Below are positions 1 to 18,555 of a DNA stretch of 18,555 bases, one piece after another. The DNA comes from a virus. Its lineage: Duplodnaviria > Heunggongvirae > Uroviricota > Caudoviricetes. The stretch is taken from the IMG/VR virus record IMGVR_UViG_2630968500_000002, positions 1-18,555 of that record; one strand, 5' to 3'. Numbering within the stretch: the stretch's first letter is position 1; each line of letters opens with the position of its first letter. A program made the position numbers and the translations under genes. The notes below the pieces were generated by a model. That model was not told the DNA's origin, did not search any database, and was given only the letters and a program-made list of their open reading frames with translations.

Positions 1-36
1 GACGTAAACCAAACCTTAATCGGGAGATACTGCACT

Positions 37-279: not shown

Positions 280-311
280 GTTCAATTATGAGAACTTTCT
301 AAGGGGATAGC

Positions 312-821: not shown

Positions 822-828
822 GGTGCTT

Positions 829-1334: not shown

Positions 1335-1401
1335 CCAACTAATGAAATTAATGGCGTAAACCCGCCGGGCATCCCTTTATCTAAATTCAGGAGTATTGAT
1401 T

Positions 1402-1635: not shown

Positions 1636-1862
1636 TGGCTGATGCAATGGATCTCGTACAGCAGCGCGTTGAAGAAGAACGCCAGCGCCATATTCGTGCT
1701 GCCCGTGCCAAAACACCGGGCGTGTCTCGCGTGCTTTGCATTGAATGTGAAGTGCCAATTCCGCCAGCACGCCGCCGCGCCATTCCTGGAGTGCAGCTTT
1801 GCATTACCTGTCAGGAAATCGCAGAGCTGAAAGGCAAACATTACAACGGAGGTGCTGTATGA
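1635..1862 (+). CDS. TraR/DksA-family C4-type zinc-finger protein
   Basis: 75 aa with two CxxC pairs (CIECEV ... CITCQE) in the typical DksA/TraR spacing; start overlaps the upstream stop and the stop overlaps the dam start (ATGA), indicating translational coupling. Confidence 0.7.
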   Translation: MADAMDLVQQRVEEERQRHIRAARAKTPGVSRVLCIECEVPIPPARRRAIPGVQLCITCQEIAELKGKHYNGGAV

Positions 1863-2716
1863 GCACCATCCTGAAATGGGCGGGAAATAAAACCGCAATT
1901 ATGTCCGAACTGAAAAAACACCTTCCTGCTGGCCCGCGACTGGTTGAACCTTTCGCGGGTTCCTGTGCAGTGATGATGGAGACGGAGTACCCCAGCTATC
2001 TTGTTGCGGATATTAATCCTGATTTAATCAACCTCTATAAAAAGGTTGCTGCTGATTGTGAATCGTTTATATCTCGCGCCAGAGTTTTATTTGAGATCGC
2101 AAACAGGGAGGTGGCTTATTACAACATAAGGCAGGAGTTTAATTACTCAACTGAAATTACTGATTTCATGAAAGCGGTATATTTCCTGTATCTCAATCGT
2201 CACGGTTACCGTGGTTTATGTCGCTATAACAAGAGCGGGCATTTCAACATTCCCTACGGTAATTATAAAAATCCGTATTTCCCTGAAAAAGAAATTCGCG
2301 CATTTGCAGAAAAAGCCCAGCGGGCAACGTTTATCTGCGCCAGCTTTGATGAAACGCTGGCGATGTTGAAGGCGGGGGATGTGGTGTATTGCGATCCGCC
2401 GTATGACGGTACGTTTTCCGGTTATCACACTGACGGTTTCACTGAAGATGACCAGTATCACCTTGCATCCGTTCTTGAACATCGGTCATCAGAAGGACAT
2501 CCGGTCATTGTTTCTAACAGTGACACATCCCTGATCCGTTCGCTGTATCGCAATTTTACTCACCACTATATCAAGGTAAAACGCAGCATCGGTGTGGCAG
2601 CTGGCGAGGGTAAATCAGCAACAGAAATCATTGCTGTTTCCGGGCCGCGCTGCTGGGTGGGATTTGATTATTCGCGTGGCGTGGATAGTTCTGCCGTGTA
2701 CGGAGTACGTGCATGA
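1859..2716 (+). CDS. dam: DNA adenine methyltransferase (Dam-like, GATC-type N6-adenine MTase)
   Basis: N-terminus [15 protein letters not shown]....LVEPFAGS and a DPPY catalytic motif (VYCDPPYDG) are hallmarks of Dam-family MTases. ATG at 1859 with GGAGGTG RBS; the ORF-track start at 1799 is an upstream extension. 285 aa. Confidence 0.85.
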
Positions 2717-5127: not shown

Positions 5128-5219
5128 TTACGCGGGTTAACAATTCGTGCTCTTAATAATACCAGGCATATCAGGCTAATGAACGTAAAAAAACGTTTTA
5201 CATCAGTAAGATTATTATA

Positions 5220-5239
5220 TACTGTAAATATAAACAGTG
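5220..5239 (+). promoter_or_regulatory. LexA operator (SOS box) upstream of the tum-like module
   Basis: TACTGTAAATATAAACAGTG read directly: CTGT, then an 8-nt AT-rich spacer, then ACAG. Matches the E. coli LexA box consensus TACTGT(AT)4ACAGTA; located about 42 nt upstream of the ATG at 5281. Confidence 0.7.
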
Positions 5240-5280
5240 GTTATGTATACAGTATTGCTTGTGGTGTCATAGGAGGAAAG

Positions 5281-5469
5281 ATGCAGGACTATTTTTTGGA
5301 GTCTTTGAAGCTCCAGCGCATTGATTTTTTTCTTAAGCTTGTAGCGGCTAGTGAGTGTAGTGATGAAGAGAAGGGGCTGGCTTTGCAGTGGGTTTCTGAA
5401 CTGACAGATGAACTCATGGCAAAAATCAGAACCCACGAATACAACCGCTCAATGGATGTCATCAGCTGA
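5281..5469 (+). CDS. Small protein (62 aa) cotranscribed with the DinI-like gene; possible N-terminal Tum antirepressor-like moiety
   Basis: ATG at 5281 preceded by AGGAGGAAAG RBS; the ORF-track start at 5179 would place the LexA box inside the coding region, so the downstream start is preferred. Acidic protein, no recognised domain. Confidence 0.5.
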   Translation: MQDYFLESLKLQRIDFFLKLVAASECSDEEKGLALQWVSELTDELMAKIRTHEYNRSMDVIS

Positions 5470-5479
5470 GGTGACCTTT

Positions 5480-5713
5480 ATGCGCATTGAAATAATGATC
5501 GATAAAGAGCAGAAGATTAGCCAGTCTACCCTGGACGCCCTTGAATCCGAGCTTTACCGCAATCTGCGCCCCCTGTATCCCAAAACGGTAATTCGCATCC
5601 GCAAAGGTAGCTCTAACGGTGTGGAACTGACCGGACTGCAACTGGACGAAGAAAGAAAACAAGTGATGAAGATTATGCAGAAGGTGTGGGAAGACGACAG
5701 CTGGCTGCATTAA
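5480..5713 (+). CDS. DinI-family protein (DNA-damage-inducible protein I-like; Tum C-terminal-domain-like)
   Basis: 77 aa starting MRIEIMIDK...LDALESEL...WEDDSWL, which aligns by eye with E. coli DinI (MRIEVTIAK...IDALAGEL...WESADDW); GAGGTGA RBS before ATG 5480; LexA box upstream of the two-gene unit. Confidence 0.8.
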   Translation: MRIEIMIDKEQKISQSTLDALESELYRNLRPLYPKTVIRIRKGSSNGVELTGLQLDEERKQVMKIMQKVWEDDSWLH

Positions 5714-5719
5714 GAAAAG

Positions 5720-5760
5720 TTGCTGGCGTCTGAACTTGGTTCTGGCGTCAGCAAGGTTGA
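5720..5760. terminator. Putative hairpin terminator between the convergent DinI-like and secreted-protein genes
   Basis: Inverted repeat TTGCTGGCGTC (5720-5730) / GGCGTCAGCAA (5744-5754), with an A-tract upstream on the + strand (equivalent to a T-tract on the - strand). Confidence 0.4.
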
Positions 5761-5872
5761 ACAACGAGTACAGTGAGGCGTTAGGTGTGGCGTTTATTTG
5801 ATGAGTGAACGCCCGTTCTGCGACAGGTTCGGAGATTAAGGTTGAAACTACGGGCAAAATACCATCTTTTTC

Positions 5873-6298
5873 CTACTTAATTGAGTCCAGTAACAAGTTA
5901 CAGTTACTCTCATTGTAGAGAGAACGAGCAATTAGTGTTACCTGCTTTCCATTCATTCCCGGCTTATCCCATAACACAGCTTCTTGCGACGCCACAAATT
6001 CAGCATAATCAATTATGCGTTGTTCGTGATCTGGTTCCTCATAGCCAAAGTATGAGAGCGCATCGTTGTAAGCGTGGTAAGCTGCTTTCTGTAATATCTT
6101 GATATCGGCTGTAGGTACTAGCTCCGTGTAGCTAGGATCTAATTGTGTGCTACTGCCATAGAATGCACATGAAAGGTAAGATATTGATTTCTGTTGAGCT
6201 TTAGTTCCTTTCTCATAGTTTTTAGCTGTTACCGCCTGAACTGGGACGCTAACAAAGCTTGTAACCAGAATTAAAATTAATACGTAAAAGCTTTTCAT
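5873..6298 (-). CDS. Secreted/periplasmic protein of unknown function (cargo/moron gene)
   Basis: 141 aa; N-terminal signal peptide MKSFYVLILILVTSFVSVPVQA with AxA-type cleavage context (VQA/VT); GAGGT RBS 5 nt upstream on the - strand. Low GC (21 G+C in the 60 nt at 6181-6240) against about 60% in the structural genes. Transcribed opposite to the flanking phage genes. Confidence 0.7.
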   Translation of the reverse strand: MKSFYVLILILVTSFVSVPVQAVTAKNYEKGTKAQQKSISYLSCAFYGSSTQLDPSYTELVPTADIKILQKAAYHAYNDALSYFGYEEPDHEQRIIDYAEFVASQEAVLWDKPGMNGKQVTLIARSLYNESNCNLLLDSIK

Positions 6299-6571
6299 TT
6301 TGACCTCAGCCGAAACGTTAGAGAGACTATCGAAATTTGTAAAACCCGTGGCGATTCAGTTTGAGATCCTCCCCCTTACATGATTTTTAATCAAATATAT
6401 GCTTTTGTAAGCATACCTGTTAACCGAATTATTTATTTTTAGAGATCTTCCGACATACTGATTATGCCCGCTGAGGAGTTCACCTTGCGTAAAGTCCGAT
6501 TCGCTTTACTCGTCTGTGCATGTCTATGCTGCATGAGATTGCATGATCGTTTGAGGATCGTTTTTGCTAAG

Positions 6572-6595
6572 GCCCCCCAGAACTGGCGGGCTTTT
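6572..6595 (+). terminator. Putative GC-rich hairpin plus T-tract (terminator-like) in the cos-proximal intergenic region
   Basis: GCCCCCCAG..CTGGCGGGC stem with one mismatch, followed by TTTT; could instead be part of the cos packaging region. Confidence 0.3.
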
Positions 6596-6640
6596 GCGTA
6601 GATCATGCTCCTGCATGAAAACCACTACATAAAGCGGGCA

Positions 6641-6659
6641 GGCGTGGCGGGGATACGAG
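6641..6659. other. Candidate cos (cohesive end) site of the P2/186-type phage genome
   Basis: GGCGTGGCGGGGATACGAG; the first 13 nt are identical to the 19-nt cohesive-end sequence of 186 as I recall it (GGCGTGGCGGGGAAAGCAT; P2 is GGCGAGGCGGGGAAAGCAC). Lies between the end of the early/accessory region and the portal gene, as expected for cos. Confidence 0.4.
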
Positions 6660-6738
6660 CGCGCGCAAACATGTTTACTTGCAATTAATGTAGATATATT
6701 CTGAAATTGATAACTTACACATGAAAGGAGACGTGAGA

Positions 6739-6930
6739 GTGGCAAAATATACACCGGGCCAGAAAGTAAAACATGCAACAGGACATGGTCCAATCATGGT
6801 AATTGATCACTACCAATCGGCTACAATGGCAGTTTGTACGTGGTTTATTGGTGCTAAGAACCAGCGCGGAGTTTTTCATGAAGATACTCTAGTTTTATTT
6901 GTTCCAAAAGCTGAGAGTGATGATGAATGA
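6739..6930 (+). CDS. DUF2158/YodC-like small protein (63 aa)
   Basis: AGGAG at 6726-6730 then GTG at 6739, which is better RBS spacing than the ORF-track ATG at 6721. Sequence AKYTPGQKVKHATGHGPIMVIDHY fits the YodC/DUF2158 pattern (GD.V.LKSGGP.MTV) as recalled. Stop overlaps the downstream gene. Confidence 0.55.
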   Translation: MAKYTPGQKVKHATGHGPIMVIDHYQSATMAVCTWFIGAKNQRGVFHEDTLVLFVPKAESDDE

Positions 6931-7189
6931 TTCTCTGATAAAAATAGTTGACTGGATGGTTAATACCACTCGTTCTAATGGTGTGTTGTATCAGTCCGAG
7001 GTTGTTGAATTTCTAATCAATGACTTTGGGGACGAGTTCATCAAAACTAATGAGAATGGTAATTACGCTATAAGCAGTACTGTGCTAGCAAATTTTAGAA
7101 AGGCTAGCAAAGACGATATAGTTTGGGATCGTGAACAGTTAGCTTGGCGTTTACGCAATGAAAGCGATTTACCCGGACGGATGCAGTAG
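6920..7189 (+). CDS. Hypothetical small protein (about 89 aa), translationally coupled to the DUF2158-like gene
   Basis: ATG ATG at 6920/6923 overlapping the upstream stop (GATGATGAATGA); no recognised domain; followed by a terminator hairpin. Confidence 0.55.
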   Translation: MMNDSLIKIVDWMVNTTRSNGVLYQSEVVEFLINDFGDEFIKTNENGNYAISSTVLANFRKASKDDIVWDREQLAWRLRNESDLPGRMQ

Positions 7190-7206
7190 AGATAATACAG
7201 ATAATA

Positions 7207-7247
7207 GTGAACAAGCTGATAATTTCAACTTGTTCACTTCTTTTTTA
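7207..7247. terminator. Putative bidirectional rho-independent terminator between the small-gene pair and portal gene Q
   Basis: Inverted repeat GTGAACAAG (7207-7215) / CTTGTTCAC (7229-7237), followed by TTCTTTTTT on the + strand; lies just downstream of the Q stop on the - strand. Confidence 0.6.
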
Positions 7248-8288
7248 TGACTGATTATTTTCTAAGCCATAATATTCAAATTTGACTACCTCTTCATCTA
7301 ACCATTCATTAATTTCGGCAATGCGTTTTTGTAAAGGCATCAGTTCATTCCGAACAAATACCCGGCTGGCTTTCTCCACATCCCCAAACCCCCCTACATT
7401 ATTAGGCATAATCCCCATCATCTGCGGCGGCACTCGGTGTGCTGCCATCATGTCGTCCCGGCTCACGTTCTTGATATTCAGAAACTCATCCTTCGCCGCG
7501 ACTTCTGACAACGGGATGATCTGAAGCCCGTCCTTTTTGCCGTTAGGCGAGTACATAAACAGATTGCGGAAGTTACCTGGTCCTTTGGCGCTTTTCATCG
7601 CATTGCGGAGGTTGTTCACATCCTCCTGGTTTTGCGCGGCATCGGTCATGTACATGATGAAGCCTGCATGACTGCCGTTAATGTAATACTTTCGACGGAA
7701 CAGCGTGGCGGACTCGTTGAGCAGGGCAGACGGAATTGCAGAAAGATAACCGGGCAGGCCGTAGATCTCCTGATTAATATCTGGTTCCATTAGATGAAAA
7801 ATGCTGCCTTTCGTGAACTGATACGGCTGGGTTGTCATACCGTATTGCACAAACCAGTAGGTATCCAGGTCTAACCCGCGTCGGGTGTATTTTGCCAGCG
7901 CAGGCTCAAGGGCGATAACTTCACCGAATCGGTTCGTGCGTTTCTCCAGGTAGGCGTTACCAAATACCAGATAGTCCTGCACAAAACGCGAAAAAGCCTG
8001 CTGGCTGAGCAGCGGATGAGGGATATAGGTACTGGTCAGAATGTTGCACTTTACTGCAATCGGGGAACTGTGATGCACGGCGGCGCGGAAGGTGCGCGCC
8101 AGTCCGTCAAAGCTGACGGGCGGCTCATACCAACGGTCCATCTGTACGCATTCCACATAGTCCAGCAGTTCACGGCGGTCCAGAACAGGAACGGGATCGC
8201 CGAAGCTGAATGCTTCGGCTGTAGTTTGACTTTTAAGCTGGATCTTTTTCGTCGCCGCAGCTCGGTTCTTCTTACTCTTTCCCATCAA
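7245..8288 (-). CDS. Q: Portal (capsid portal) protein, P2 gpQ-like
   Basis: 347 aa (P2 Q is of similar size as recalled); divergent from O-N-M-L and directly downstream of the terminase ATPase gene on the same strand, the canonical P2 Q-P arrangement. Confidence 0.85.
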   Translation of the reverse strand: MMGKSKKNRAAATKKIQLKSQTTAEAFSFGDPVPVLDRRELLDYVECVQMDRWYEPPVSFDGLARTFRAAVHHSSPIAVKCNILTSTYIPHPLLSQQAFSRFVQDYLVFGNAYLEKRTNRFGEVIALEPALAKYTRRGLDLDTYWFVQYGMTTQPYQFTKGSIFHLMEPDINQEIYGLPGYLSAIPSALLNESATLFRRKYYINGSHAGFIMYMTDAAQNQEDVNNLRNAMKSAKGPGNFRNLFMYSPNGKKDGLQIIPLSEVAAKDEFLNIKNVSRDDMMAAHRVPPQMMGIMPNNVGGFGDVEKASRVFVRNELMPLQKRIAEINEWLDEEVVKFEYYGLENNQS

Positions 8289-10051
8289 AAAATCTCCACA
8301 ATATTGCTGGTATTGGCGGATTCGCCCTGCAGCGGTTCGTTAAACAGTGCGTGCATCGTTGCCCATGCCAGATCGGCGTGGCTGGCTTCTTCGCTGCGGC
8401 TGGCTTCATAGGTCGGGCGGTTGCCACTGGCGGTGGTGGCGCGACGGATTGCCATAAATGACTGCGCAATGTCGGTATGTCCGGCGTCAAACTCCAGACG
8501 GCGGTGGCTGATAATGTCGTAGGCCTTGAGTACCAGGGCGTTTTTAACGTTGGGGTTGTAGACAAACTCCCGGACGGCAGGAAAGAACGCTTTCACGTTC
8601 TCGTAAACCCCGTGACCAACGCCGGTTGAGTCGATGCCGATGTAGGTCACGTTGTACTGCTCGGTCAGTTTTTTGATTGCGTCAGCCTGGGCGCGGAAGT
8701 CCATCCCGCGCCACTGGTGACGCTCAAGAATGCGGAACTTACCGCCCGGCACGGCTGGCGGTGCCACCACCACGCATCCGGCGCTGTCGCCGTTCTGCGT
8801 ACCTTTTGCCGGGTCATAACCGATCCACACTTCGCGCCAGCCAAACGGGCGCAGGGCCAGAGCATGAAAGTCGGTCCAGACTTCCCAACTGTCCACCATG
8901 CACGCCTGCAGCTCGCTGAGCGGAAACACGGACGCGAGATCGTCCACAAACTCGCACATCAGTAGGTTCTGGTATTCGTCCGGGCTGTACTCCATGCGCA
9001 ACTGGTCGAGGTCGAACAGGTTACAGCCGCCGCGCACCGCATCTTCCACAGTGACTATCTGGCGGTACTGCCCGTCTGCGCACAGCAGGCCGGGGGCCAG
9101 ATTGCTGTGGGACAGGTCGATGTCCACCTTATCGGCTTTGTTGCGCCCACGATTGAACAGCGCACCGGACCAGAACGGATAAGCACTGTGAGTCAGGCTG
9201 GATGGCGTGGAAAAATAGGTTTGTCGCCATTTTTTGTGAATAGCCATACCGGAAGCCACTTTGCGCAGCTCCTGGAATTTCGGTATCCAGAAATATTCAT
9301 CCAGATACAGGTTGCCGTGATAACTCTGGGCAGTGCGGGCATTGGTGCCGAGGAAGTAAAGCGTGGCCCCGTTAGGAAGCACCATCGGATCGCCTTTCAA
9401 CTCCACCTCCACTTCTTTGGCGAAGTCGATGATGTACTGCTTAAAGACGTGGGCCTGTGCCTTGCTGGCGGAAAGGAAAATCTGGTTACGTCCGGTAAGC
9501 AGGGCGTCAATCAGGGCTTCACGGGCAAAGTAAAAGGTCGCGCCGATCTGGCGTGACTTCAGCAGGTTGCGGATGCGGTTGGCTTTTCCGGCTTCCCACC
9601 AGTGGCGCTGGTAGTTGAACATGGAGGAATGGAAGATTTCTTCCAGCTTCTCAATCTGCTCATCGGTGAAAACATTCTTTTCCGGCTGACGGCGCGGGCC
9701 TTTGTTGCGGTTGGCGACGTTAGGGTTTAAGTCGGCTTCGTTGCCGCCATTGTTAAACTTGCCGATCCGCGCGTGGCGCTCCGACTGGCGCGCCAGCAGG
9801 TCAATCTCTTTGAAATCTTTCCCTTCTTTGTGCTCCTTCATAATGAGCTGGCAGTAGCGTGCGGCGGTGGTGAGCTGCATCTGATCCAGCGGCCCATAGT
9901 CACCCCACTTGTCGCGTTTTTTCCAGCTGTGAACAGTTGCAACTTTCTCGCCCAGCATTTCAGCAATGCGGGCGACGCGGTATCCCTGAAAGTACAGCAG
10001 CATGGCCTGCCGACGGGGATCGAGATCTGCGGGTGTCAGTGTGGTGTTCAT
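8285..10051 (-). CDS. P: Terminase ATPase (large) subunit, P2 gpP-like
   Basis: 588 aa, matching P2 gpP size as recalled; its stop overlaps the Q start; divergent from the scaffold gene O across a late-promoter region. Confidence 0.9.
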   Translation of the reverse strand: MNTTLTPADLDPRRQAMLLYFQGYRVARIAEMLGEKVATVHSWKKRDKWGDYGPLDQMQLTTAARYCQLIMKEHKEGKDFKEIDLLARQSERHARIGKFNNGGNEADLNPNVANRNKGPRRQPEKNVFTDEQIEKLEEIFHSSMFNYQRHWWEAGKANRIRNLLKSRQIGATFYFAREALIDALLTGRNQIFLSASKAQAHVFKQYIIDFAKEVEVELKGDPMVLPNGATLYFLGTNARTAQSYHGNLYLDEYFWIPKFQELRKVASGMAIHKKWRQTYFSTPSSLTHSAYPFWSGALFNRGRNKADKVDIDLSHSNLAPGLLCADGQYRQIVTVEDAVRGGCNLFDLDQLRMEYSPDEYQNLLMCEFVDDLASVFPLSELQACMVDSWEVWTDFHALALRPFGWREVWIGYDPAKGTQNGDSAGCVVVAPPAVPGGKFRILERHQWRGMDFRAQADAIKKLTEQYNVTYIGIDSTGVGHGVYENVKAFFPAVREFVYNPNVKNALVLKAYDIISHRRLEFDAGHTDIAQSFMAIRRATTASGNRPTYEASRSEEASHADLAWATMHALFNEPLQGESANTSNIVEIF

Positions 10052-10087
10052 GGCACAAACCTACAGCCTTGAATGAAGGCTTTCCCC

Positions 10088-10105
10088 GCCTGCGGTTTGT
10101 GTGGT
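10088..10105. promoter_or_regulatory. Candidate late-promoter activator site (TGT-N12-ACA) in the divergent P/O control region
   Basis: TGTGTGGTTGTCGGTACA read directly. P2/186 late promoters activated by Ogr/B carry a TGT-N12-ACA dyad centred near -55; this site lies about 95 nt upstream of the O start codon. Confidence 0.45.
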
Positions 10106-10193
10106 TGTCGGTACAAATACCGCGCATTGTTTCACTGCCCCCATCACCGCAACCATAAGGCTCCAGTAAGTTTTTTCTAACGGAGCACGGCTC

Positions 10194-11027
10194 ATGACAG
10201 TGAAAGCAAAGCGTTTTCGCATCGGGGTGGAAGGTGCCACCACCGACGGACGCGAAATCCAGCGTGAATGGCTGGAACAGATGGCAGCCAGCTACAACCC
10301 GGCGGTGTATACCGCGCTGATTAACCTTGAGCACATCAAGTCTTATCTGCCGGACAGCACCTTTAACCGCTACGGCAAGGTGACGGCGCTGTTTGCTGAA
10401 GAAATCACGGAAGGTCCGCTGGCAGGCAAGATGGCGCTGTATGCCGACGTTGAGCCAACGGAATCCCTGGTGGAACTGGTGAAAAAAGGCCAGAAATTAT
10501 TCACCTCTATGGAAGTCAGCCCGAAGTTTGCTGATACGGGCAAAGCCTACCTGGTCGGCCTGGCTGCCACTGATGACCCTGCCAGTCTGGGCACTGAAAT
10601 GCTGACATTCAGCGCCAGTGCAGCCCATAACCCGCTGGCAAACCGCAAGCAGAATCCCGCCAATCTCTTTACCGCCGCAGAGGAAACGGTGATCGAACTG
10701 GAAGAAATCCAGGAGGACAAGCCGTCCCTGTTTGCCCGCGTCACGGCACTGTTCACCAAAAAAGAGCAGTCCGACGATGCCCGGTTCTCTGATGTGCATA
10801 AGGCCGTGGAGCTGGTCGCCACTGAGCAGCAAAACCTGAGCGCACGCACCGAAAAATCCCTGTCTGAGCAGGAAGAACGTCTGTCTGAGCTGGAGACTGC
10901 CCTGCAGGCACAGCAGACCGCCTTTAACGAACTGGTGAATAAGCTGAGTCATGAAGACAGCCGCCAGGACTACCGCCAGCGTGCAACAGGCGGTAACGCC
11001 CCCGCTGACACTCTGACCAATTGCTGA
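10194..11027 (+). CDS. O: Capsid scaffolding protein, P2 gpO-like
   Basis: 277 aa; CGGAG RBS 8 nt upstream of the ATG; first gene of the rightward late operon preceding the major capsid gene; acidic coiled-coil-rich C-terminal half typical of scaffold proteins. Confidence 0.85.
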   Translation: MTVKAKRFRIGVEGATTDGREIQREWLEQMAASYNPAVYTALINLEHIKSYLPDSTFNRYGKVTALFAEEITEGPLAGKMALYADVEPTESLVELVKKGQKLFTSMEVSPKFADTGKAYLVGLAATDDPASLGTEMLTFSASAAHNPLANRKQNPANLFTAAEETVIELEEIQEDKPSLFARVTALFTKKEQSDDARFSDVHKAVELVATEQQNLSARTEKSLSEQEERLSELETALQAQQTAFNELVNKLSHEDSRQDYRQRATGGNAPADTLTNC

Positions 11028-11043
11028 TGGAGCACAAAACCCG

Positions 11044-12102
11044 ATGAAGAAGAATACCCGCTTTGCTTTTAACGCTTACCTGCAGCAGCTGGCGCGTCTG
11101 AACGGTGTGGCCGTTGAAGAACTGTCCAGCAAGTTCACTGTAGAGCCGTCTGTGCAGCAGACGCTGGAAGATCAGATCCAGCAGTCCGCCGCATTCCTGA
11201 CGCTGATTAACGTCACGCCAGTGACTGAGCAGTCTGGTCAGTTGCTGGGGCTGGGTGTTGGCAGCACCATTGCCGGAACCACTGATACCACAGCTAAAGA
11301 GCGTGAGCCTGTCGATCCGACGCTGATGGTCGATGTGGAATATAAATGCGAGCAGACTAACTTTGACACGGTGCTGACCTACGCGAAGCTGGACCTGTGG
11401 GCGAAGTTTCAGGATTTCCAGGTGCGTATCCGTGACGCCATCGTGAAACGTCAGGCACTGGACCGCATCATGATCGGCTTTAACGGCGTGAAGCGTGCGA
11501 AAACCTCCAACCGTAGCGAAAACCCGCTGCTGCAGGATGTGAACAAAGGCTGGCTGCAGAAAATCCGTGAAGATGCACCGGATCACGTCATGGGCAGCAC
11601 CACCACGGGCGGTGAAACCACACCGGGTGCGGTGAAAGTCGGTAAAGGTGGCGAATATGCCAACCTGGACGCAGTGGTGATGGATGCCGTCAATGAGCTT
11701 ATCGACGTGGTCTACCAGGACGATGACGATCTGGTGGTGATTTGCGGTCGTGAACTGCTGTCTGACAAGTATTTCCCGCTGGTCAACAAAGAGCAGGAAA
11801 ACAGTGAAAAACTGGCTGCCGATATGATCATCAGCCAGAAACGCATGGGTGGCCTGCAGGCCGTGCGTGCGCCGTTCTTCCCGCCGAATGCGCTGCTGAT
11901 CACCCGTCTGGATAACCTGTCCATCTACTGGCAGGAAGACACCCGCCGCCGTTCAGTTATCGACAACCCGAAACGTGACCGGATTGAAAACTTTGAATCC
12001 GTTAACGAAGCCTATGTGGTTGAGGACTACCGCTGCGCCGCACTGGTGGAAAACATCCAGATTGGTGACTTCAGCGCCGCCGCAGCAGAAACCGGAGCGT
12101 AA
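11044..12102 (+). CDS. N: Major capsid protein, P2 gpN-like
   Basis: 352 aa, immediately downstream of the scaffold gene; size and position match P2 N. Confidence 0.9.
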   Translation: MKKNTRFAFNAYLQQLARLNGVAVEELSSKFTVEPSVQQTLEDQIQQSAAFLTLINVTPVTEQSGQLLGLGVGSTIAGTTDTTAKEREPVDPTLMVDVEYKCEQTNFDTVLTYAKLDLWAKFQDFQVRIRDAIVKRQALDRIMIGFNGVKRAKTSNRSENPLLQDVNKGWLQKIREDAPDHVMGSTTTGGETTPGAVKVGKGGEYANLDAVVMDAVNELIDVVYQDDDDLVVICGRELLSDKYFPLVNKEQENSEKLAADMIISQKRMGGLQAVRAPFFPPNALLITRLDNLSIYWQEDTRRRSVIDNPKRDRIENFESVNEAYVVEDYRCAALVENIQIGDFSAAAAETGA

Positions 12103-12105
12103 TTC

Positions 12106-12756
12106 ATGAGCCTGAGTCCCGCACGGCAGCATCGCCTGCGCGTTCAGGCTGAACAGGCCGCTCGCGAGGGTGGCAGTGTTCGCCACGCGTCGGGCTATGA
12201 CCTGATGCTGCTGCAACTGGCGGAAGACCGCCGCCGTCTCAAGGGCGTTCAGTCCACGGTCAAAAAAGCGGAAATCAAGGTGGAGCTGCTGCCGAAGTAC
12301 GCCGCCTGGGCGGAGGGCGTCCTGGCTGCCGGAGGCGCTCAACAGGATGACGTGCTGATGTACGTGATGCTGTGGCGCATTGATGCCGGAGATTATGCCG
12401 GGGCGCTGGAGATCGGGCGTCATGCCCTGCGTCATGGCTGGGTGATGCCGCTGGGTAACCGCAACGTGCAGACCGTGCTGGCAGAGGAAATGGCAGATGC
12501 AGCGCAGAGCGCAATGCTTGCCGCCACCGACTTTGATGCCGATCTGTTACTGCAGACGCTGGAGCTGACAGACGGTCTGGATATGCCGGACCAGTCACGG
12601 GCGCGTCTGCATAAAGCGATTGGCGCTGTCCTGAGTGAAAGCAATCCGGCTTCCGCCCTTAATCATCTCAACCATGCGTTACAGCTCGATCCCCGCTGTG
12701 GCGTGAAAAAAGACAAACAGCAGCTGGAGCGCAGACTGCGCAATGACAGCCGCTGA
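12106..12756 (+). CDS. M: Terminase endonuclease (small) subunit, P2 gpM-like
   Basis: 216 aa following N by 3 nt with a GGAG RBS; position matches P2 M. Confidence 0.8.
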   Translation: MSLSPARQHRLRVQAEQAAREGGSVRHASGYDLMLLQLAEDRRRLKGVQSTVKKAEIKVELLPKYAAWAEGVLAAGGAQQDDVLMYVMLWRIDAGDYAGALEIGRHALRHGWVMPLGNRNVQTVLAEEMADAAQSAMLAATDFDADLLLQTLELTDGLDMPDQSRARLHKAIGAVLSESNPASALNHLNHALQLDPRCGVKKDKQQLERRLRNDSR

Positions 12757-12851
12757 CAGAACGTGCCCCCGCGCACGGGCGGCACGGGGTGGCGAAAGGC
12801 ACTGCCACATCAAAATCCCGTCCACCGCCCTCTATTTCAGGAGAAAGCAGC

Positions 12852-13316
12852 ATGAAGTTTGTTGCGCCAGAACAGGCACCGGAACAGGCGGAAATCATCA
12901 GAAATACGCCGTTCTGGCCTGATGTGGACCTGTCGGAGTTTCGCTGTGTCATGCGCACTGACGGCACGGTGACGCAGCCGCGTTTAAAGCAGGTTGCCCT
13001 GTCGGCAATTTCGGAGGTCAACGCAGAGCTGTATGAGTTTCGCAGACGTCAGCAGATGCTGGGATATGCCTCGCTGGCAGAGGTTCCGGCGGAACAGCTG
13101 GACGGCAAAAGTGAGCGCATTCATCACTATTTCAACGCGGTTTACTGCTGGGCACGCGCCATGCTCAACGAGCGTTATCAGGACTATGACGCCACGGCAT
13201 CCGGTGTGAAGCGGGGCGAGGAACTGGCGGAAGCAAGCGGTGATTTGTGGCGTGACGCCCGCTGGGCCATCAGCCGGGTGCAGGATGCGCCGCACTGCAC
13301 AGTGGAGCTTATCTGA
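12852..13316 (+). CDS. L: Head completion/stabilisation protein, P2 gpL-like
   Basis: ATG at 12852 with AGGAGAAAG RBS; the ORF-track start at 12789 is an upstream extension. About 155 aa; stop overlaps the X start (TGATG). Confidence 0.8.
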   Translation: MKFVAPEQAPEQAEIIRNTPFWPDVDLSEFRCVMRTDGTVTQPRLKQVALSAISEVNAELYEFRRRQQMLGYASLAEVPAEQLDGKSERIHHYFNAVYCWARAMLNERYQDYDATASGVKRGEELAEASGDLWRDARWAISRVQDAPHCTVELI

Positions 13317-13519
13317 TGAAAGTGCGTGCGCATCAGTATGACACGGTGGACGCGCTTTGCTGGCGTCATTACGGGCGCACGCAGGGTGTCACGGAGCAGG
13401 TACTGAAGGCAAATCCGGGGCTTGCCGAATACGGCCCCTTTTTACCTCACGGGCTGCAGGTGGAGCTGCCGGACATTCCGACAACCACCACCGTGCAGAC
13501 CGTCCAGCTATGGGACTGA
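13316..13519 (+). CDS. X: Tail protein X, P2 gpX-like
   Basis: 67 aa, same size as P2 gpX as recalled; located between L and the lysis cassette. Confidence 0.8.
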   Translation: MKVRAHQYDTVDALCWRHYGRTQGVTEQVLKANPGLAEYGPFLPHGLQVELPDIPTTTTVQTVQLWD

Positions 13520-13522
13520 ATT

Positions 13523-13738
13523 ATGACGCTTGAGCGAATCAGCGCCTTTATCACGTATTGCATCGCCGTCGTGCTGGCCTGGCTGGGCGATTTGTCCATC
13601 AAGGATGCCTCAACGCTGGGCGGCCTGATGATTGGTGTACTGATGCTGGCTATCAACTGGTACTACAAACACAAAGCCTACCAGCTTCTGCGCGACGGGC
13701 AGATCTCGCGGGAGGACTATGAATCCATCAATCGTTAA
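13523..13738 (+). CDS. Holin (small two-TM, pinholin-like)
   Basis: 71 aa with two hydrophobic segments (ISAFITYCIAVVLAWLG and LGGLMIGVLMLAINWYY) and a charged C-terminus; immediately upstream of and overlapping a SAR endolysin gene. Confidence 0.7.
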   Translation: MTLERISAFITYCIAVVLAWLGDLSIKDASTLGGLMIGVLMLAINWYYKHKAYQLLRDGQISREDYESINR

Positions 13739-14231
13739 ACGCTGCCTTGTCGGGGCCGTGCTGGCTATTGCTGCCACGCTGCCGGGTTTTCAGCAGCTTC
13801 ACACCTCCGTGGAGGGGCTGAAACTGATTGCTGATTACGAAGGCTGTCGTCTGCAGCCGTATCAGTGCAGCGCGGGTGTCTGGACCGACGGCATTGGTAA
13901 TACGTCGGGCGTCATTCCCGGCAAAACCATTACGGAGCGACAGGCAGCAGAAGGGCTGATCTCCAACGTGCTGCGTGTGGAGCGGGCGCTGGAAAGGTGT
14001 GTGAAGCAACAGCCGCCGCAGAAGGTGTATGACGCTGCGGTGTCGTTTGCCTTCAACGTGGGAACGGGCAATGCCTGCAGTTCCACACTGGTGAAATTAC
14101 TCAATCAGCGGCGCTGGGCGGATGCGTGCCGACAGTTGCCGCGCTGGGTTTATGTGAAAGGTGTTTTTAATCAGGGGCTGGATAACCGCCGTGCGCGGGA
14201 GATGGCCTGGTGCTTACAGGGAGCAAACTGA
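13719..14231 (+). CDS. SAR endolysin (T4-lysozyme-like muramidase with N-terminal signal-anchor-release domain)
   Basis: N-terminal G/A-rich weakly hydrophobic segment CLVGAVLAIAATLPGF, then an E-x8-D-x5-T catalytic triad (EGLKLIADYEGCRLQ...WTDGIGNT), as in phage 21 R-type SAR lysozymes; GGGAGGA RBS; 170 aa. Confidence 0.85.
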   Translation: MNPSIVKRCLVGAVLAIAATLPGFQQLHTSVEGLKLIADYEGCRLQPYQCSAGVWTDGIGNTSGVIPGKTITERQAAEGLISNVLRVERALERCVKQQPPQKVYDAAVSFAFNVGTGNACSSTLVKLLNQRRWADACRQLPRWVYVKGVFNQGLDNRRAREMAWCLQGAN

Positions 14232-14232
14232 A

Positions 14233-14610
14233 ATGAAAAAGAAAGTAATCAGCGGGCTGTTTCTGATGTTATGGATGGCGCTGTTGATCGCAGCAATGGT
14301 GTATCCACAGGGGATTTTTCCGGTACTGGCAGCGTCCGGTGTCTGGGTAGCCTGTCTGCTGACATGGGCGGTAATTCCGGTAGCACTGGCTGCGTTAATT
14401 AAGAACGGCCCGCTCTGGCAGGAGTTGAGGGCATCTTTGCTAAAGACCATTACCCGAAAAGAAAACGTATTTATCAGCTGGGTGATGCGATTGCTGATTG
14501 TCGTAAGTTTTGCCTGGACGGGGTGGGCTATTACCCTGGTCTTTTATCTGCTGACCGTTATTGCCTTCTGGATGATCCGTAATCAGATTGCGCAACAGGT
14601 AGCAGCATGA
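14233..14610 (+). CDS. lysA: LysA-like membrane protein (lysis timing/holin accessory)
   Basis: 125 aa, multiple hydrophobic helices; follows the endolysin as lysA does in P2. Confidence 0.6.
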   Translation: MKKKVISGLFLMLWMALLIAAMVYPQGIFPVLAASGVWVACLLTWAVIPVALAALIKNGPLWQELRASLLKTITRKENVFISWVMRLLIVVSFAWTGWAITLVFYLLTVIAFWMIRNQIAQQVAA

Positions 14611-15035
14611 ACCGGTTGCTGCTGGTTGTGCTGGCGTTATTACTGGCGGCGCTGGGCTGGCAGACGTGGCGGCTGGCTGATGCCAGCCAGACCATCAGCA
14701 CGCAGGCAGACGAGCTTCGGAGCAAAAGCCAGGCACTGGCAAAGAGCAACAGCCAGCTTATCAGCCTGTCCATTCTGACTGAAACCAATAACCGGGAGCA
14801 GGCGCGGCTCTATGCCGAAGCAGAACAGACCAGTGTACTGCTGAGACAACGACAACACCGGATTGAGGAACTGAAACGTGAGAACGAGGATTTACGCCGC
14901 TGGGCTGATACTCCTGTGCCTGCTGACATTATCCGGCTGCGGGAACGCCCCACACTCACCGGAGGTGCAGCTTACCGTCAGTGGTTGTCCGCGAGTGACG
15001 CCGTGTCGGCTGGGGCAGGCAGCGCCGCGCACTAA
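14607..15035 (+). CDS. lysB: LysB-like inner-membrane spanin (i-spanin, Rz-like)
   Basis: 142 aa; N-terminal TM (LLLVVLALLLAALGW) and coiled-coil periplasmic domain; contains the embedded start of an o-spanin gene in the +1 frame. Confidence 0.8.
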   Translation: MNRLLLVVLALLLAALGWQTWRLADASQTISTQADELRSKSQALAKSNSQLISLSILTETNNREQARLYAEAEQTSVLLRQRQHRIEELKRENEDLRRWADTPVPADIIRLRERPTLTGGAAYRQWLSASDAVSAGAGSAAH

Positions 15036-15168
15036 CGGTGACCTGAACGCGTTGCTGGATGAAACGGAGGCCGCCTGGGCGGTCTGTGCAGACAAAGTGG
15101 ACATGATTATTGCGTGTCAGGAGCGAAACAGTGAACAAACCACAATCCCTGCGCCACGCCCTCAATAA
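14878..15168 (+). CDS. lysC: LysC-like outer-membrane lipoprotein spanin (o-spanin, Rz1-like)
   Basis: GTG start at 14878 with GAGGAA RBS; lipobox LTLSGC after a hydrophobic signal; Pro-rich C-terminus; starts inside lysB in another frame and extends past it. 96 aa. Confidence 0.75.
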   Translation: MRTRIYAAGLILLCLLTLSGCGNAPHSPEVQLTVSGCPRVTPCRLGQAAPRTNGDLNALLDETEAAWAVCADKVDMIIACQERNSEQTTIPAPRPQ

Positions 15169-15562
15169 AGCGGTGCCTTATGTCCGCAATAACCCGGACA
15201 AACTGCATCTGTTTGTGGATAACGGTTCGCTGGTTGCCACGGGGGCCAGCTCCATGTCATGGGAGTACCGCTATACCCTGAACGTGGTGATAGAGGATTT
15301 CAGCGGCGACCAGAATCTGCTGATGGCCCCGGTTTTACTGTGGCTTCGGGATAACCAGCCCGATGCCATCTATAACCCGGCGTTACGGGAAAAGCTATTC
15401 ACCTTTGAGGTGGATATTTTGCGCAACGATGTCTGTGATATCAGCCTTAACCTGCAACTGACGGAACGTGTGCTGGTCAGTACTGACGGCAGTGTGTCGA
15501 GCGTTGAAGCTGTAGCAGAACCCGATGAACCTGAAGAAATGTGGACGGTGAAACGTGGCTGA
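15131..15562 (+). CDS. R: Tail completion protein R, P2 gpR-like
   Basis: GTG at 15131 preceded by AGGAG (15119-15123); the ORF-track TTG start at 15110 is less likely. About 143 aa; position after the lysis genes matches P2. Confidence 0.75.
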   Translation: MNKPQSLRHALNKAVPYVRNNPDKLHLFVDNGSLVATGASSMSWEYRYTLNVVIEDFSGDQNLLMAPVLLWLRDNQPDAIYNPALREKLFTFEVDILRNDVCDISLNLQLTERVLVSTDGSVSSVEAVAEPDEPEEMWTVKRG

Positions 15563-16001
15563 ACTGCAGAAGGTGGACGACTGGCTGAGTGCCTTGCTGG
15601 CGAATCTGGAACCAGCCACGAGAAGCCGCATGATGCGCCAGCTGGCGCAGGAACTGCGCCGGACACAGCAGCAGAATATCAGGATGCAGCGCAATCCAGA
15701 TGGCAGCAGTTATGAACCGCGCAGGGTAACAGCACGCAGCAAAAAAGGCCGCATCAAACGTCAGATGTTTGCAAAGCTGCGCACCACAAAATACCTGAAA
15801 ACTGCCGCCAGCGCCGACTCTGCCAGCGTACAGTTTGAAGGCAAGGTGCAGCGTATTGCCCGTGTTCACCATTACGGCCTGCGCGATCGCGTCAGTCGCA
15901 AAGGACCGGAAGTGCGTTATGCAGAGCGGCGGTTGCTTGGTATCAATAACAAGATGCAGTCTGTCATTGGAGATATATTGCATCAGTGGCTGTTTAAATG
16001 A
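15555..16001 (+). CDS. S: Tail completion protein S, P2 gpS-like
   Basis: 148 aa, GTG start overlapping the R stop; last gene of the O-operon-equivalent in P2 order. Confidence 0.75.
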   Translation: MAELQKVDDWLSALLANLEPATRSRMMRQLAQELRRTQQQNIRMQRNPDGSSYEPRRVTARSKKGRIKRQMFAKLRTTKYLKTAASADSASVQFEGKVQRIARVHHYGLRDRVSRKGPEVRYAERRLLGINNKMQSVIGDILHQWLFK

Positions 16002-16027
16002 GCCAACTAATTTGGTTAATCTAATTT

Positions 16028-16063
16028 ATTCGTTGTTAACGAATATCATATTTTTAATTTTTT
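16028..16063 (+). terminator. Putative rho-independent terminator at the end of the late operon after S
   Basis: Hairpin ATTCGTT-GTT-AACGAAT (16028-16044) followed by a T-rich tract (ATTTTTAATTTTTTA). Confidence 0.45.
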
Positions 16064-16861
16064 ATGGATATGCTCCATCCCTAAATTAGATATCTCTTTT
16101 TTTAGCTGGGTTTCACTTGCAGTTATCCAGTTTTTTCCACAGTTTGGTAGAAGCATCTCGCTACTTGACGGATTGATAAGTTTTACTTTTTCATTCTTTA
16201 TAATTTTGTTTTTCAAATAACTTTTACTTATTAAGGCTGATTTTTCAGTTATAACGAGATAAAAAAATATGCTTCCAAAAAATATACCTTTTAAAATAAT
16301 ACCGCTGCGTAACAGAACAGGGTCATTTTTGGTTATTCTCATTTTAAAGGGAGAGCAAAGGTTGTCTTCACTTGTAGGTATATTAAGTTCGCTTTTTTGC
16401 TCGTCAGTAAGTTTAAGAGGCATGAGCAGTCCAGCGAAGAGCATGACATCTTTTTCTGAAGGCAAAGGTTCTCCGCGGAGAATATAATCTTTATATGCGC
16501 CAAAAATATGTGTGGATGGATCATTGACCGCGCTTGCCGAGTTGTAAGAAATTTTCATTAACCAGCGTAGCAATAAATGATAATCATAAGTTATAGTCGT
16601 TTGTGTCTTTAGATAAAGTTGGGTTAAGAAACCGTTTCTGGCTAAAAACTGACTTCCATAATCATCTAAAAAACTTAATGCTCCACCATTGCATGTTTTA
16701 CAAACATCGGCAATTGTTGCCTCACCACCAATTATATCATTTGCTCTCTCGTTCCAGCCTATAAAACGATCTCCAGATTCTTTTTGATATTTATATATAA
16801 ATTTAGGGATAATATGTTCTCTTTCTATTATTCCATCTTGTTCGCAATATCTGCAGTGCAT
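16046..16861 (-). CDS. HNH-nuclease-domain protein (His-Me finger with two CxxC zinc knuckles) plus uncharacterised C-terminal domain; cargo/moron gene
   Basis: 271 aa; N-terminus carries C3-x2-C6, H16 (EREHIIPK), N37/N41 and C54-x2-C57-N58, the arrangement of zinc-stabilised HNH endonucleases. GGAG RBS on the - strand. Very AT-rich (13 G+C in the 60 nt at 16201-16260), opposite in orientation to the flanking tail genes, inserted between late operons. Confidence 0.8.
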   Translation of the reverse strand: MHCRYCEQDGIIEREHIIPKFIYKYQKESGDRFIGWNERANDIIGGEATIADVCKTCNGGALSFLDDYGSQFLARNGFLTQLYLKTQTTITYDYHLLLRWLMKISYNSASAVNDPSTHIFGAYKDYILRGEPLPSEKDVMLFAGLLMPLKLTDEQKSELNIPTSEDNLCSPFKMRITKNDPVLLRSGIILKGIFFGSIFFYLVITEKSALISKSYLKNKIIKNEKVKLINPSSSEMLLPNCGKNWITASETQLKKEISNLGMEHIHKKLKI

Positions 16862-16905
16862 TATTTTCTCCGTTGATTTTATTTATCGTTAATTTTCAGT
16901 TGTAA

Positions 16906-16923
16906 TGTGCCATCCATCATACA
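16906..16923. promoter_or_regulatory. Candidate late-promoter activator site (TGT-N12-ACA) upstream of V
   Basis: TGTGCCATCCATCATACA read directly; matches the P2-family late-promoter dyad; about 50 nt upstream of the V start codon, which is closer than the canonical spacing. Confidence 0.4.
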
Positions 16924-16968
16924 ACGGTATGTTATCGACTGAAATTCCATTTAGTTTAACATTTTTAC

Positions 16969-17547
16969 ATGAACGCACAATTAACCGAAATCATGCGCCT
17001 TATCACCAACCTGATCCGCACTGGGGTAGTCACCGAAGTGGACAGGGAAAACTGGCTTTGCCGAGTGAAAACGGGCGACCTTGAAACTAACTGGATCAGT
17101 TGGCTGACGCTGCGTGCAGGAAATGCCCGGACATGGTGGCGACCATCGGAAGGTGAGCAGGTGGTGCTGCTGAGTCTGGGCGGTAATCTGGAAACCGCGT
17201 TTGCCCTGCCTGCGGTCTACTCAAACCAGTTTCCGCCACCTTCAGGCTCTGAGGACGGCAACGTGACGGAATACCCGGACGGCGGCTGGTTTGAATACGA
17301 ACCCGCCACCGGGCGCTGGTATGTCAGGGGCATCAAATCAATGGTCATTGAGGCCGCTGACAATATCACCCTGAAAACCAGTGAGTTTGTGCTGGAGGCT
17401 GACCGCACGCGTATTAACAGCGAAGTGGTGATCAATGGTGGCGTTACCCAGGGCGGCGGAGCGATGAGCTCTAACGGGATTGTGGTTGATGCGCATCAGC
17501 ATACTGGCGTCCTGAAAGGCGGCGATACAACCGGAGGCCCGGTATGA
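16969..17547 (+). CDS. V: Baseplate assembly protein V (baseplate spike), P2 gpV-like
   Basis: 192 aa; N-terminal region resembles P2 gpV as recalled (..IRTG..VE.D...RCRV.TG...T.W..WLT.RAG..RTWW.PS.GEQV); first gene of the V-W-J baseplate block. Confidence 0.85.
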   Translation: MNAQLTEIMRLITNLIRTGVVTEVDRENWLCRVKTGDLETNWISWLTLRAGNARTWWRPSEGEQVVLLSLGGNLETAFALPAVYSNQFPPPSGSEDGNVTEYPDGGWFEYEPATGRWYVRGIKSMVIEAADNITLKTSEFVLEADRTRINSEVVINGGVTQGGGAMSSNGIVVDAHQHTGVLKGGDTTGGPV

Positions 17548-17903
17548 CGCTTTATAGCGGGATGAACAATACCAGCGGCAAAGTCATTACTGATATTGAT
17601 CATCTGCGCCAGTCGGTGCGGGACATTCTGCTGACACCGCAGGGTAGCCGTATTGCCCGCCGTGAATATGGTTCCCTGCTGTCGGCACTGATAGACCAGC
17701 CACAAAATCCGGCGTTACGCCTGCAGGTCATGTCGGCAGTGTATGTGGCGCTGAGTCGCTGGGAGCCACGGCTGACGCTGGATTCCATCACCATCAACAG
17801 CCATTTTGACGGTTCAATGGTGGTGGAGCTGAGCGGGCGGCGTAATAACGGTGTGCCTGTTTCCCTTTCCGTATCAACAGGAGCAGAGAATGGCAGTGAT
17901 TGA
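17544..17903 (+). CDS. W: Baseplate wedge protein W (gp25/GPW-like)
   Basis: 119 aa; GGAGG RBS; start overlaps the V stop; position between V and J matches P2. Confidence 0.85.
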   Translation: MTLYSGMNNTSGKVITDIDHLRQSVRDILLTPQGSRIARREYGSLLSALIDQPQNPALRLQVMSAVYVALSRWEPRLTLDSITINSHFDGSMVVELSGRRNNGVPVSLSVSTGAENGSD

Positions 17904-18555
17904 CCTTTCGCAGTTGCCTGCGCCGCAGATTGTGGATGTGCCGGACTTTGAGACGCTGCTTGCCGAACGCAAGGCCGAATTTGTTGCGCTTCATCCGAAA
18001 GATGAGCAGGAAGCAGTGATCCGCACGCTGGAACTGGAATCTGAACCCGTCACCAAATTGCTGCAGGAGAACGCTTACCGTGAGTTGCTTCTGCGCCAGC
18101 GCATTAACGAAGCCGCGCAGGCTGTGATGGTGGCTTACGCGATGGGCAGCGATCTTGACCAGCTCGCTGCCAACTACAACGTGAAACGCCTGACGGTGAC
18201 GCCTGCTGATAATGACGCTGTGCCGCCCGTTGCAGCTGTGATGGAAAGCGATGAAGCGTTACGCCTGCGTGTGCCTGCAGCCTTTGAAGGGCTTTCAGTT
18301 GCGGGGCCAACTGCAGCTTATGAATTTCATGCCCGAAGCGCCGACGGTCGGGTGGCGGATGCCAGTGCAACCAGCCCGGCACCTGCAGAGGTGGTGCTGA
18401 CTGTCCTTAGCCGCGAAGGCGATGGAACTGCAGAAAAAGACCTGCTGGACGTGGTGGAAAAAGCTCTGAACAGTGAGAACGTCCGCCCGGTGGCTGACCG
18501 TCTTACGGTTCGCAGCGCAGAAATCATCCCGTATCGCGTGGAAGCCACCATTTTT
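17890..18555 (+). CDS. J: Baseplate assembly protein J (partial, 3' end beyond the window)
   Basis: Open frame from ATG 17890 (GAGCAGAGA upstream) to the window end with no stop, 222 codons; overlaps the W stop. Not in the ORF track because it runs off the window. P2 J follows W. Confidence 0.8.
   Translation, partial: MAVIDLSQLPAPQIVDVPDFETLLAERKAEFVALHPKDEQEAVIRTLELESEPVTKLLQENAYRELLLRQRINEAAQAVMVAYAMGSDLDQLAANYNVKRLTVTPADNDAVPPVAAVMESDEALRLRVPAAFEGLSVAGPTAAYEFHARSADGRVADASATSPAPAEVVLTVLSREGDGTAEKDLLDVVEKALNSENVRPVADRLTVRSAEIIPYRVEATIF

Follow-up and report, generated by a model that had tools for sequence, protein, structure and literature searches.

What does a single AT-rich gene do between two essential late operons of a temperate phage, when it is read against the direction of both? 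We addressed this question in a stretch of 18,555 nucleotides from a Caudoviricetes virus (IMG/VR record IMGVR_UViG_2630968500_000002, positions 1 to 18,555; hereafter the window), in which the tail-completion gene S and the baseplate gene V are separated by a cassette holding one gene for a 271-amino acid protein with an N-terminal HNH nuclease motif. Judging from sequence, we think it somewhat probable that this HNH gene, a cargo of the S-V slot of a P2-like (Wadgaonvirus-like, Peduoviridae) Escherichia coli prophage, encodes a single-protein anti-phage nuclease. It is a well-supported candidate for a gene of a known general kind, with an uncharacterized fold and a family that is undescribed in the literature. 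More tentatively, and at slightly less than even chances, the protein may be the founding member of an undescribed single-protein immune nuclease family (approximately 860 clusters) that has no relative of solved fold, uses its C-terminal half for gating and is an ancient hotspot tenant predating the split of the Peduoviridae lineages. In this broader proposal the family would have resided between S and V since before the enterobacterial and the distant Peduoviridae lineages separated, and would be a recurrent tenant of P2-like hotspots. The features of the locus are the following:

15555-16001, + strand: open reading frame of tail-completion gene S (148 amino acids), last gene of the upstream late operon, named 'phage virion morphogenesis protein' by the Prokaryotic Genome Annotation Pipeline (PGAP)
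15945-16001, + strand: cassette-specific 3' end of S (approximately the 19 last codons, after ...AERRLLG), the left end of the cassette as defined by the break in similarity
16027-16045, + strand: weak hairpin (RNAfold) of an 8-bp stem and a 3-nt loop with a U-rich run behind it, which probably terminates the S operon
16046-16861, - strand: HNH-family gene, 271 amino acids, ATG start (RefSeq WP_001748178.1, PGAP name 'hypothetical protein')
16457-16861, - strand: codons 1-135 of the HNH gene, the conserved catalytic half with the Cys4 zinc site, the HNH site and a basic helix (85-sequence alignment and AlphaFold models)
16049-16456, - strand: codons 136-271 of the HNH gene, the more variable alpha/beta half (alignment and models)
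16868-16905, - strand: candidate expression signals of the HNH gene (read by eye)
16906-16923, + strand: TGT-N12-ACA dyad, Ogr-type activator site of the V late promoter, inside the cassette (from sequence)
16969-17547, + strand: baseplate gene V (192 amino acids), first gene of the next late operon, whose ATG is the right end of the cassette

The initial annotation had placed the 271-codon frame on the minus strand exactly between S and V, and this is correct, S ending at 16001 and V starting at 16969. The S protein of the window is 90% to 100% identical to S of related phages, V is named 'phage baseplate assembly protein V' by PGAP in a 100%-identical E. coli prophage, and the Pfam profiles Phage_tail_S and Phage_base_V match the equivalent flanking genes in one related locus. 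Inside the cassette the HNH frame is flanked by just 44 bp and 107 bp. The GC content is 33.7% in the HNH gene, 33.0% in the cassette and 52.7% in the rest of the window, and the counts given earlier to illustrate this difference were exact (13 G+C in the 60 nucleotides at 16201-16260 and 37 in those at 11221-11280). The terminator hairpin described after S is real but weak (dG -5.6 kcal/mol by RNAfold) and was not picked up by a consensus terminator scan; it is probably the terminator of the S operon, and the P2 record carries an annotated terminator at the equivalent place. The dyad reported upstream of V is present as described (letters TGTGCCATCCATCATACA), and the pV activator site is annotated at the same position in the P2 record. 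On the opposite strand, a putative promoter of the HNH gene could be read by eye (-35 TTACAA at 16905-16900, an 18-nt spacer and -10 TAAAAT at 16881-16876), together with a candidate Shine-Dalgarno sequence, GGAG, at 16871-16868, 6 nt ahead of the ATG. An Rfam search detected no element in this cassette, nor in the cargo of the related locus L058 that is described below.

The HNH gene is genuine and under purifying selection. The ratio of nonsynonymous to synonymous substitution rates (dN/dS) is 0.10 in a comparison with a homolog from phage L003, also P2-like, which shares 87% identity and lies in the same slot; the N-terminal half gives 0.14 and the C-terminal half 0.07. An identical protein is encoded on 260 public contigs (E. 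coli and Salmonella), each time under the name 'hypothetical protein', and the gene is therefore real. Its distribution is sparse. The prophage backbone is present at a coverage of at least 80% in 912 of 5426 complete E. coli genomes, and the cassette was found at an identity of at least 99.7% in 10 of the 5426, that is, in only 10 of the approximately 912 genomes with the backbone. The gene is intact in 9 of these 10 copies; in E. coli G5 (L135, 402-1215) a frameshift splits it into 2 open reading frames. In strain 2024CK-00475 (L136, 399-1096) the HNH gene is intact but separated from S by an IS1 element, which truncates the annotated S.

The protein contains a complete His-Me finger (HNH) site with a Cys4 zinc site, as read from its sequence and from an alignment of relatives. 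All elements of the zinc-knuckle HNH motif noticed in the initial annotation are present (C3xxC6, E13-R-E-H16-IIPK and C54xxC57-N58), and the key residues are invariant in an alignment of 85 sequences: the invariant columns are C6, E15, H16, D52, C54, C57, N58, L62, D66, and K103, while C3 (at least 90%), R99, N107, and R110 are nearly so. In the models described below, E15-H16 and N58 are accompanied by the beta-beta-alpha elements expected of such a site (strands at residues 12-16 and 49-54, helix at 55-59), and the 2 CxxC pairs form the predicted zinc site. Residues R99, K103, N107, and R110 lie on the basic helix of the conserved N-terminal half. The sole Pfam profile that touches the protein is HNH_5 (PF14279), which models only approximately 56 residues and scores 20.3 bits, under its gathering score of 27.5, and which matches 43 of the 85 family members at E ≤ 1e-3 (best 2.6e-7). 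The relatives were collected in 2 steps, a word-indexed search that returned 11 clusters and an exhaustive profile search that returned 858 representatives at E ≤ 1e-3 and 593 at E ≤ 1e-10, giving a family of approximately 860 clusters at 50% identity. Most representatives are 260 to 330 amino acids long and match over nearly their full length, and many match in the N-terminal part only (positions 1-130 up to 1-220). The family is spread over Proteobacteria, Bacillota, and Planctomycetota, and a second search with the family profile in a database of 5.8 billion proteins returned only the names 'hypothetical protein' and 'HNH endonuclease'. Members of approximately 430 amino acids (P0088, P0092, P0101, P0109, and P0146) carry an extra C-terminal domain of approximately 180 residues with a conserved GYxDDxRELYEIxEV...FPYW motif, for which a PDB sequence search found no relative.

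We modeled the protein with AlphaFold2 from 2 alignments, the first of 11 sequences (pLDDT 81.3, pTM 0.85) and the second of 85 diverged sequences (pLDDT 95.1, pTM 0.92). Both models have the same order of secondary structure, including strands at residues 12-16 and 49-54 and helices at 55-59 and 94-111, and predict a single compact alpha/beta fold. The initial annotation had proposed a novel sensor or effector domain after the HNH motif. That the rest of the protein lacks a recognized domain has stood, as nothing curated or solved matches it, whereas a separable sensor domain is not evident in the models, judging from the compactness of the fold. The long hydrophobic stretch that had also been pointed out does score like a membrane helix (Kyte-Doolittle 1.98 at residues 187-204), but both models place it in the core as a beta-hairpin with the invariant G196-S197 at the turn and give no sign of a membrane segment; a membrane anchor at this position was therefore rejected. 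Across the protein and its 85 relatives, HNH_5 was the only family matched in Pfam, NCBIfam, and PADLOC, with no NCBIfam match at all and the variable half belonging to no family in these collections. PHROGs gave only weak matches to groups of unknown function, a PDB sequence search with the single protein and with the profile found no relative, Foldseek against the PDB returned nothing below E 0.05 with the model of pLDDT 81, and tblastn of the protein against 50,697 phage records gave no match. One match was obtained in a fold search of BFVD, to an uncharacterized Myoviridae protein. Full-length homology to a characterized homing or restriction enzyme was found neither with Pfam nor with PDB sequence or Foldseek searches.

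Evidence for a role in defence comes from the place that the gene occupies. The regions flanking the cassette are 95% to 96% identical to those of P2-like phages of Klebsiella and Escherichia (Wadgaonvirus, Peduoviridae) that lack the HNH gene, and V of the window is 94% to 99% identical to V of 80 viral contigs. We took a census of the slot in 79 viral contigs with a V at least 94% identical. In 61 of them the slot is empty, with a junction of approximately 68 bp, and in the other 18 it holds cargo of approximately 10 size classes, all with a GC content of 31% to 37%. The slot is therefore variable and the HNH gene not universally conserved there. The cargos of sister phages include AriA with AriB (PARIS), an AIPR/AbiU protein, a SIR2_2/ThsA-like protein, and a GmrSD_N/NsnA-like protein with a Schlafen domain, all in backbones that are approximately 95% identical, and so the earlier proposal that this inter-operon position is loaded with anti-phage cargo is borne out. 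The cargos, with coordinates in each related locus, are:

L123, 2797-4900; L099, 3162-4862; L092, 3694-4923; L064, 2947-4761: cargos of known type in sister phages
L067, 4039-4953: cargo for a 304-amino acid protein
L070, 3764-4945: cargo for a 393-amino acid protein
L002, 1608-3119: cargo for a 503-amino acid P-loop protein
L066, 4475-4915: cargo for a 146-amino acid membrane protein
L058, 2062-2868, - strand: 268-amino acid membrane protein in a cargo of 857 bp

The cargos of 304, 393, 503, and 146 amino acids gave no PADLOC match and no meaningful Pfam match, and are further candidates for defence genes. The 268-amino acid membrane protein is the commonest non-empty cargo (5 of 79 contigs: L058, L059, L069, L116, and L120); its gene overlaps the end of S by approximately 59 nt, and it resembles Orf30 of P2 in length and topology with a marginal sequence similarity (BLASTP E 0.084).

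The borders of the cassette were compared in the window (15945-16968) and in L001, L002, L058, L064, L066, L067, L070, L092, L099, and L123. With all cargo types, the similarity of the backbone ends after '...AERRLLG' of S (approximately at window position 15945) and the similarity between cassettes resumes at the start codon of V (ATGAACGCACAA). Each cargo type has its own AT-rich S tail of approximately 19 residues, in which the helix-like pattern xN(D)xxxxxxxxLxxWLxx is kept, and the TGT-N12-ACA dyad is found 63 to 66 nt before the ATG of V in 13 of 13 loci with differing cargo and otherwise unrelated sequence, which is far beyond chance. Because every cassette has a private S tail and a private dyad, the hotspot exchanges whole units consisting of the S tail, the cargo, and the V promoter. 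This indicates that the S-V slot is a true defence hotspot of self-contained cassettes. The main hotspots of P2 in the literature are gpA-Q and Z/fun, and a survey from 2026 mentions less populated hotspots 'within the tail genes' (NAR, PMC13586616).

We then located the relatives of the HNH gene, using the 11-sequence alignment for the profile scan of genome contigs. They occupy the S-V slot of many P2-like phages at identities from 87% down to 26%, in 13 of the 23 relatives on viral contigs, and the S and V genes that flank the distant ones are down to 30% to 50% identical to those of the window. The initial annotation had called the gene a foreign moron; a single-gene, AT-rich cargo on the opposite strand it is, but it is a recurrent occupant of this slot and not a one-off import. 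Other relatives lie at the gpA-ogr/portal hotspot in Aeromonas, where the P2-like prophage has DarTG (DarT and Macro) as well, beside gpD and a merged AriAB-like gene in another P2-like prophage, in a Tn7-like cargo with GmrSD, Eco57I, HicAB, and HEPN genes, in a Halomonas island with RVT_1, QatABCD, a BrxL fragment, and DUF4238, in a Brenneria integrase island with a DCD-domain gene, and beside RVT_1 or IS110 transposase genes. When the neighbors at 30 non-slot loci were pooled, they included integrases, resolvases, TnsD/TniQ, type I restriction-modification, AbiEii, and AriA-like genes. No partner gene was conserved across the loci of the relatives. Two phages (L017, 4726-6807, and L008, 1190-2639) carry an HNH homolog and a second gene in the slot; in one of them this is a gene for a 332-amino acid DUF6896 protein, with both genes on the strand of S and V, and in the other a gene for a 200-amino acid multi-pass membrane protein located just upstream of the HNH homolog.

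These observations suggest how the protein might work. The cassette between the end of S and the start of V recombines, and sister phages carry PARIS, AbiU, SIR2, or GmrSD-like genes instead. A weak promoter of its own would drive the HNH gene in the direction opposite to the late operons, so that the protein could be made in the lysogen; we infer this expression from the orientation only. The conserved N-terminal half, with the HNH site and the basic helix R99/K103/N107/R110, would bind and cut DNA. Since the cassette has no room for a partner or antitoxin gene, the discrimination between self and invader would have to lie in the protein itself, and its C-terminal half is a candidate specificity or gating module. 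This half may limit cutting to a feature of the incoming phage DNA, as in type IV-like or structure-dependent restriction, or it may restrain the nuclease until a phage cue is perceived, as in abortive infection by a fused sensor-effector of the CapRel kind. We prefer direct targeting of the invading DNA only slightly, because, in complete E. coli genomes, the gene is intact in 9 of 10 cases with no antidote next to it.

Several results weigh against a defensive role. PADLOC v2.0.0 (5027 models) gave 0 matches for the protein and the 85 relatives. No known modified-DNA reader domain or sensor domain was found by Pfam or by PDB sequence and fold searches, the fold searches resting on the first model (pLDDT 81). 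The consensus promoter scan found no sigma-70 promoter upstream of the gene, the candidate described above being below its threshold. The pooled neighbors of the non-slot relatives, taken as a raw list, also include ordinary metabolic genes. Finally, the HNH protein diverges in step with the phage backbone to much the same degree as structural genes do among themselves: the rho values for its identity matrix are 0.84 with V, 0.85 with W, 0.66 with S, and 0.94 with R, and V against W gives 0.83 (these correlations were used qualitatively, as their p-values are not independent).

This last result could equally mean that the protein serves the phage, as an accessory nuclease for which protection of the lysogen would not be the main role. 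It might, for example, act against P4-like satellites or against co-resident or superinfecting P2-like phages, help in counter-defence, or degrade DNA of the host or of competitors in the lytic cycle. The correlations with V, W, and R suggest a long residence in the phage lineage. The occupation of the S-V slot in phages with very diverged S and V and the share of viral-contig relatives found there also speak for this explanation. A phage-serving gene fits less well with a cargo that is dispensable, given the predominance of empty slots in the closest backbones and the few E. coli backbone genomes that carry it, and that lies antisense to, and outside, the late operons. It also fits less well with relatives that sit among defence genes in non-phage settings, and with HNH and backbone trees that disagree locally: between L013 and L014 the identity is 62% in HNH and 67% in V, and between L014 and L015 it is 94% in V but only 45% in HNH. 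Because of the co-divergence we keep this explanation, as an unlikely one. The correlations and the local swaps point to an old and recurrent tenant of the S-V slot that broadly co-diverged with P2-like backbones with some exchange.

The initial annotation had named a free-standing homing endonuclease as the main alternative to a defence nuclease. Such an enzyme would cleave the S-V junction in phages that lack its gene, repair would then copy the gene into the cut site, and the private S tail would confer immunity on the target site. The HNH catalytic site, the intergenic position between conserved phage genes with a presence/absence polymorphism among near-identical phages, the recurrence of the family at the same junction of very divergent P2-like phages, and the altered 3' end of S next to the insertion are all features that a homing gene could have. 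But the boundaries, the private S tail, and the private dyad are common to all cargo types, including PARIS, SIR2, and AbiU, and these junction features therefore belong to the hotspot and not to the HNH gene, for which no insertion boundaries of its own were found. The homologs at 2 other positions of P2-like prophages (gpA-ogr and next to gpD), in the Tn7-like cargo, and in chromosomal islands also speak against homing, as do the dominance of the empty allele and the antisense orientation to phage late transcription. In addition, Pfam detected no NUMOD, IENR1, or helix-turn-helix (HTH) modules in the 85 members, and there was no similarity to characterized homing enzymes in Pfam or the PDB. 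The homing explanation is thus weakened and we consider it very improbable. The least probable explanation is a selfish or neutral passenger, either an addiction-type toxin or a moron kept only because its cassette supplies the S tail and the V promoter, with no adaptive nuclease function in this host: the frameshift in 1 of the 10 E. coli copies, the lack of a consensus promoter, and the linkage to an essential S end and pV dyad that could protect the gene from deletion would agree with it, but the catalytic residues are invariant across a family of approximately 860 clusters in several phyla, and a neutral passenger is made unlikely by the purifying selection over the whole length and by the dominance of the 68-bp empty cassettes, which means that the phage needs no cargo to keep S and pV.

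We also compared the candidate nuclease with described systems. The arrangement at the corresponding 'moron' position of P2 is the same: S, a terminator, a nonessential AT-rich frame of approximately 260 to 270 amino acids on the opposite strand, the pV activator site, and V. The product differs, Orf30 of P2 being a multi-pass membrane protein and the cargo here a predicted soluble HNH protein; a distant homology between the two was considered and rejected (hhalign probability 0.3% against the HNH family profile). McrA-like type IV enzymes, which have no partner methylase, and HNH type II enzymes such as KpnI are similar in being lone Cys4-zinc HNH polypeptides that could cut foreign DNA directly, the mechanism that we slightly prefer. 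In the protein studied here, unlike in these, the HNH motif is N-terminal and no SRA, EVE, SBD, or other known reader domain was found. For type IV or type II restriction more generally, there was no PADLOC restriction endonuclease match, no match in sequence or fold to solved restriction enzymes, and no adjacent gene in the cassette that could be a cognate methyltransferase. Phage HNH homing endonucleases (I-HmuI and the T4 Mob family) share the HNH chemistry and the sporadic intergenic location between conserved phage genes, but the family described here has many unrelated insertion contexts and shares its slot boundaries with non-nuclease cargo. The HNH effectors that act with an ATPase partner (Septu PtuB, Zorya II ZorE, and the retron HNH protein) do not correspond to this single-gene cassette, and PADLOC matched none of them. 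With the cargo of P2-like hotspots (Old, Tin, Rst_DUF4238, PARIS, AbiU, and others; Rousset et al. 2022, PMC9122126; PMC13586616) the cassette shares its small size, AT-richness, exchange, and often single-gene content, and PARIS and AbiU occupy the S-V slot itself in sister phages, but the HNH protein matches none of these families. A classification of His-Me finger nucleases includes a small bacterial 'group 8' with only HNH_5 and no assigned function (PMC5714182). No publication on the family was found in main texts when we searched for its accession, for HNH_5, and for single-gene defence by HNH proteins, and WP_001748178.1 was absent from the searched portion of the DefensePredictor supplements.

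If the HNH protein defends its host, a compact nuclease family of 271 amino acids with an unseen fold and no partner would join the bacterial immune repertoire, and it could be used to find out directly how an HNH enzyme acting alone distinguishes the DNA of a phage from that of its host. Many such defence candidates exist; this one stands out as compact, widespread, structurally unmatched, and testable. The locus also illustrates how 2 essential late operons can have a hotspot between them. As each cassette brings its own functional S end and Ogr-type activator site, one cargo can replace another while tail assembly stays intact. This slot has been less studied than gpA-Q and Z/fun of P2, and the at least 4 further cargos of unknown function that it holds in this lineage are themselves candidates.

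Two other regions of the window were inspected. The frame of 305 amino acids at 1799-2716, upstream of the replication gene, has a counterpart of 285 amino acids in the EA7 prophage that is annotated as DNA adenine methylase. It corresponds to this enzyme by position and length only, and appears to be a backbone gene and not part of the cassette, so that a connection with the HNH gene is improbable. At 5128-7244 lies the classic gpA-portal (old/tin) hotspot, which likewise has a lowered GC content (39% to 46%) and short open reading frames only, one of which (5873-6298, - strand) encodes 141 amino acids with a signal peptide-like start. Its counterparts in related E. coli prophages are occupied by TIR, AIPR, DUF262, P-loop, or PIN genes.

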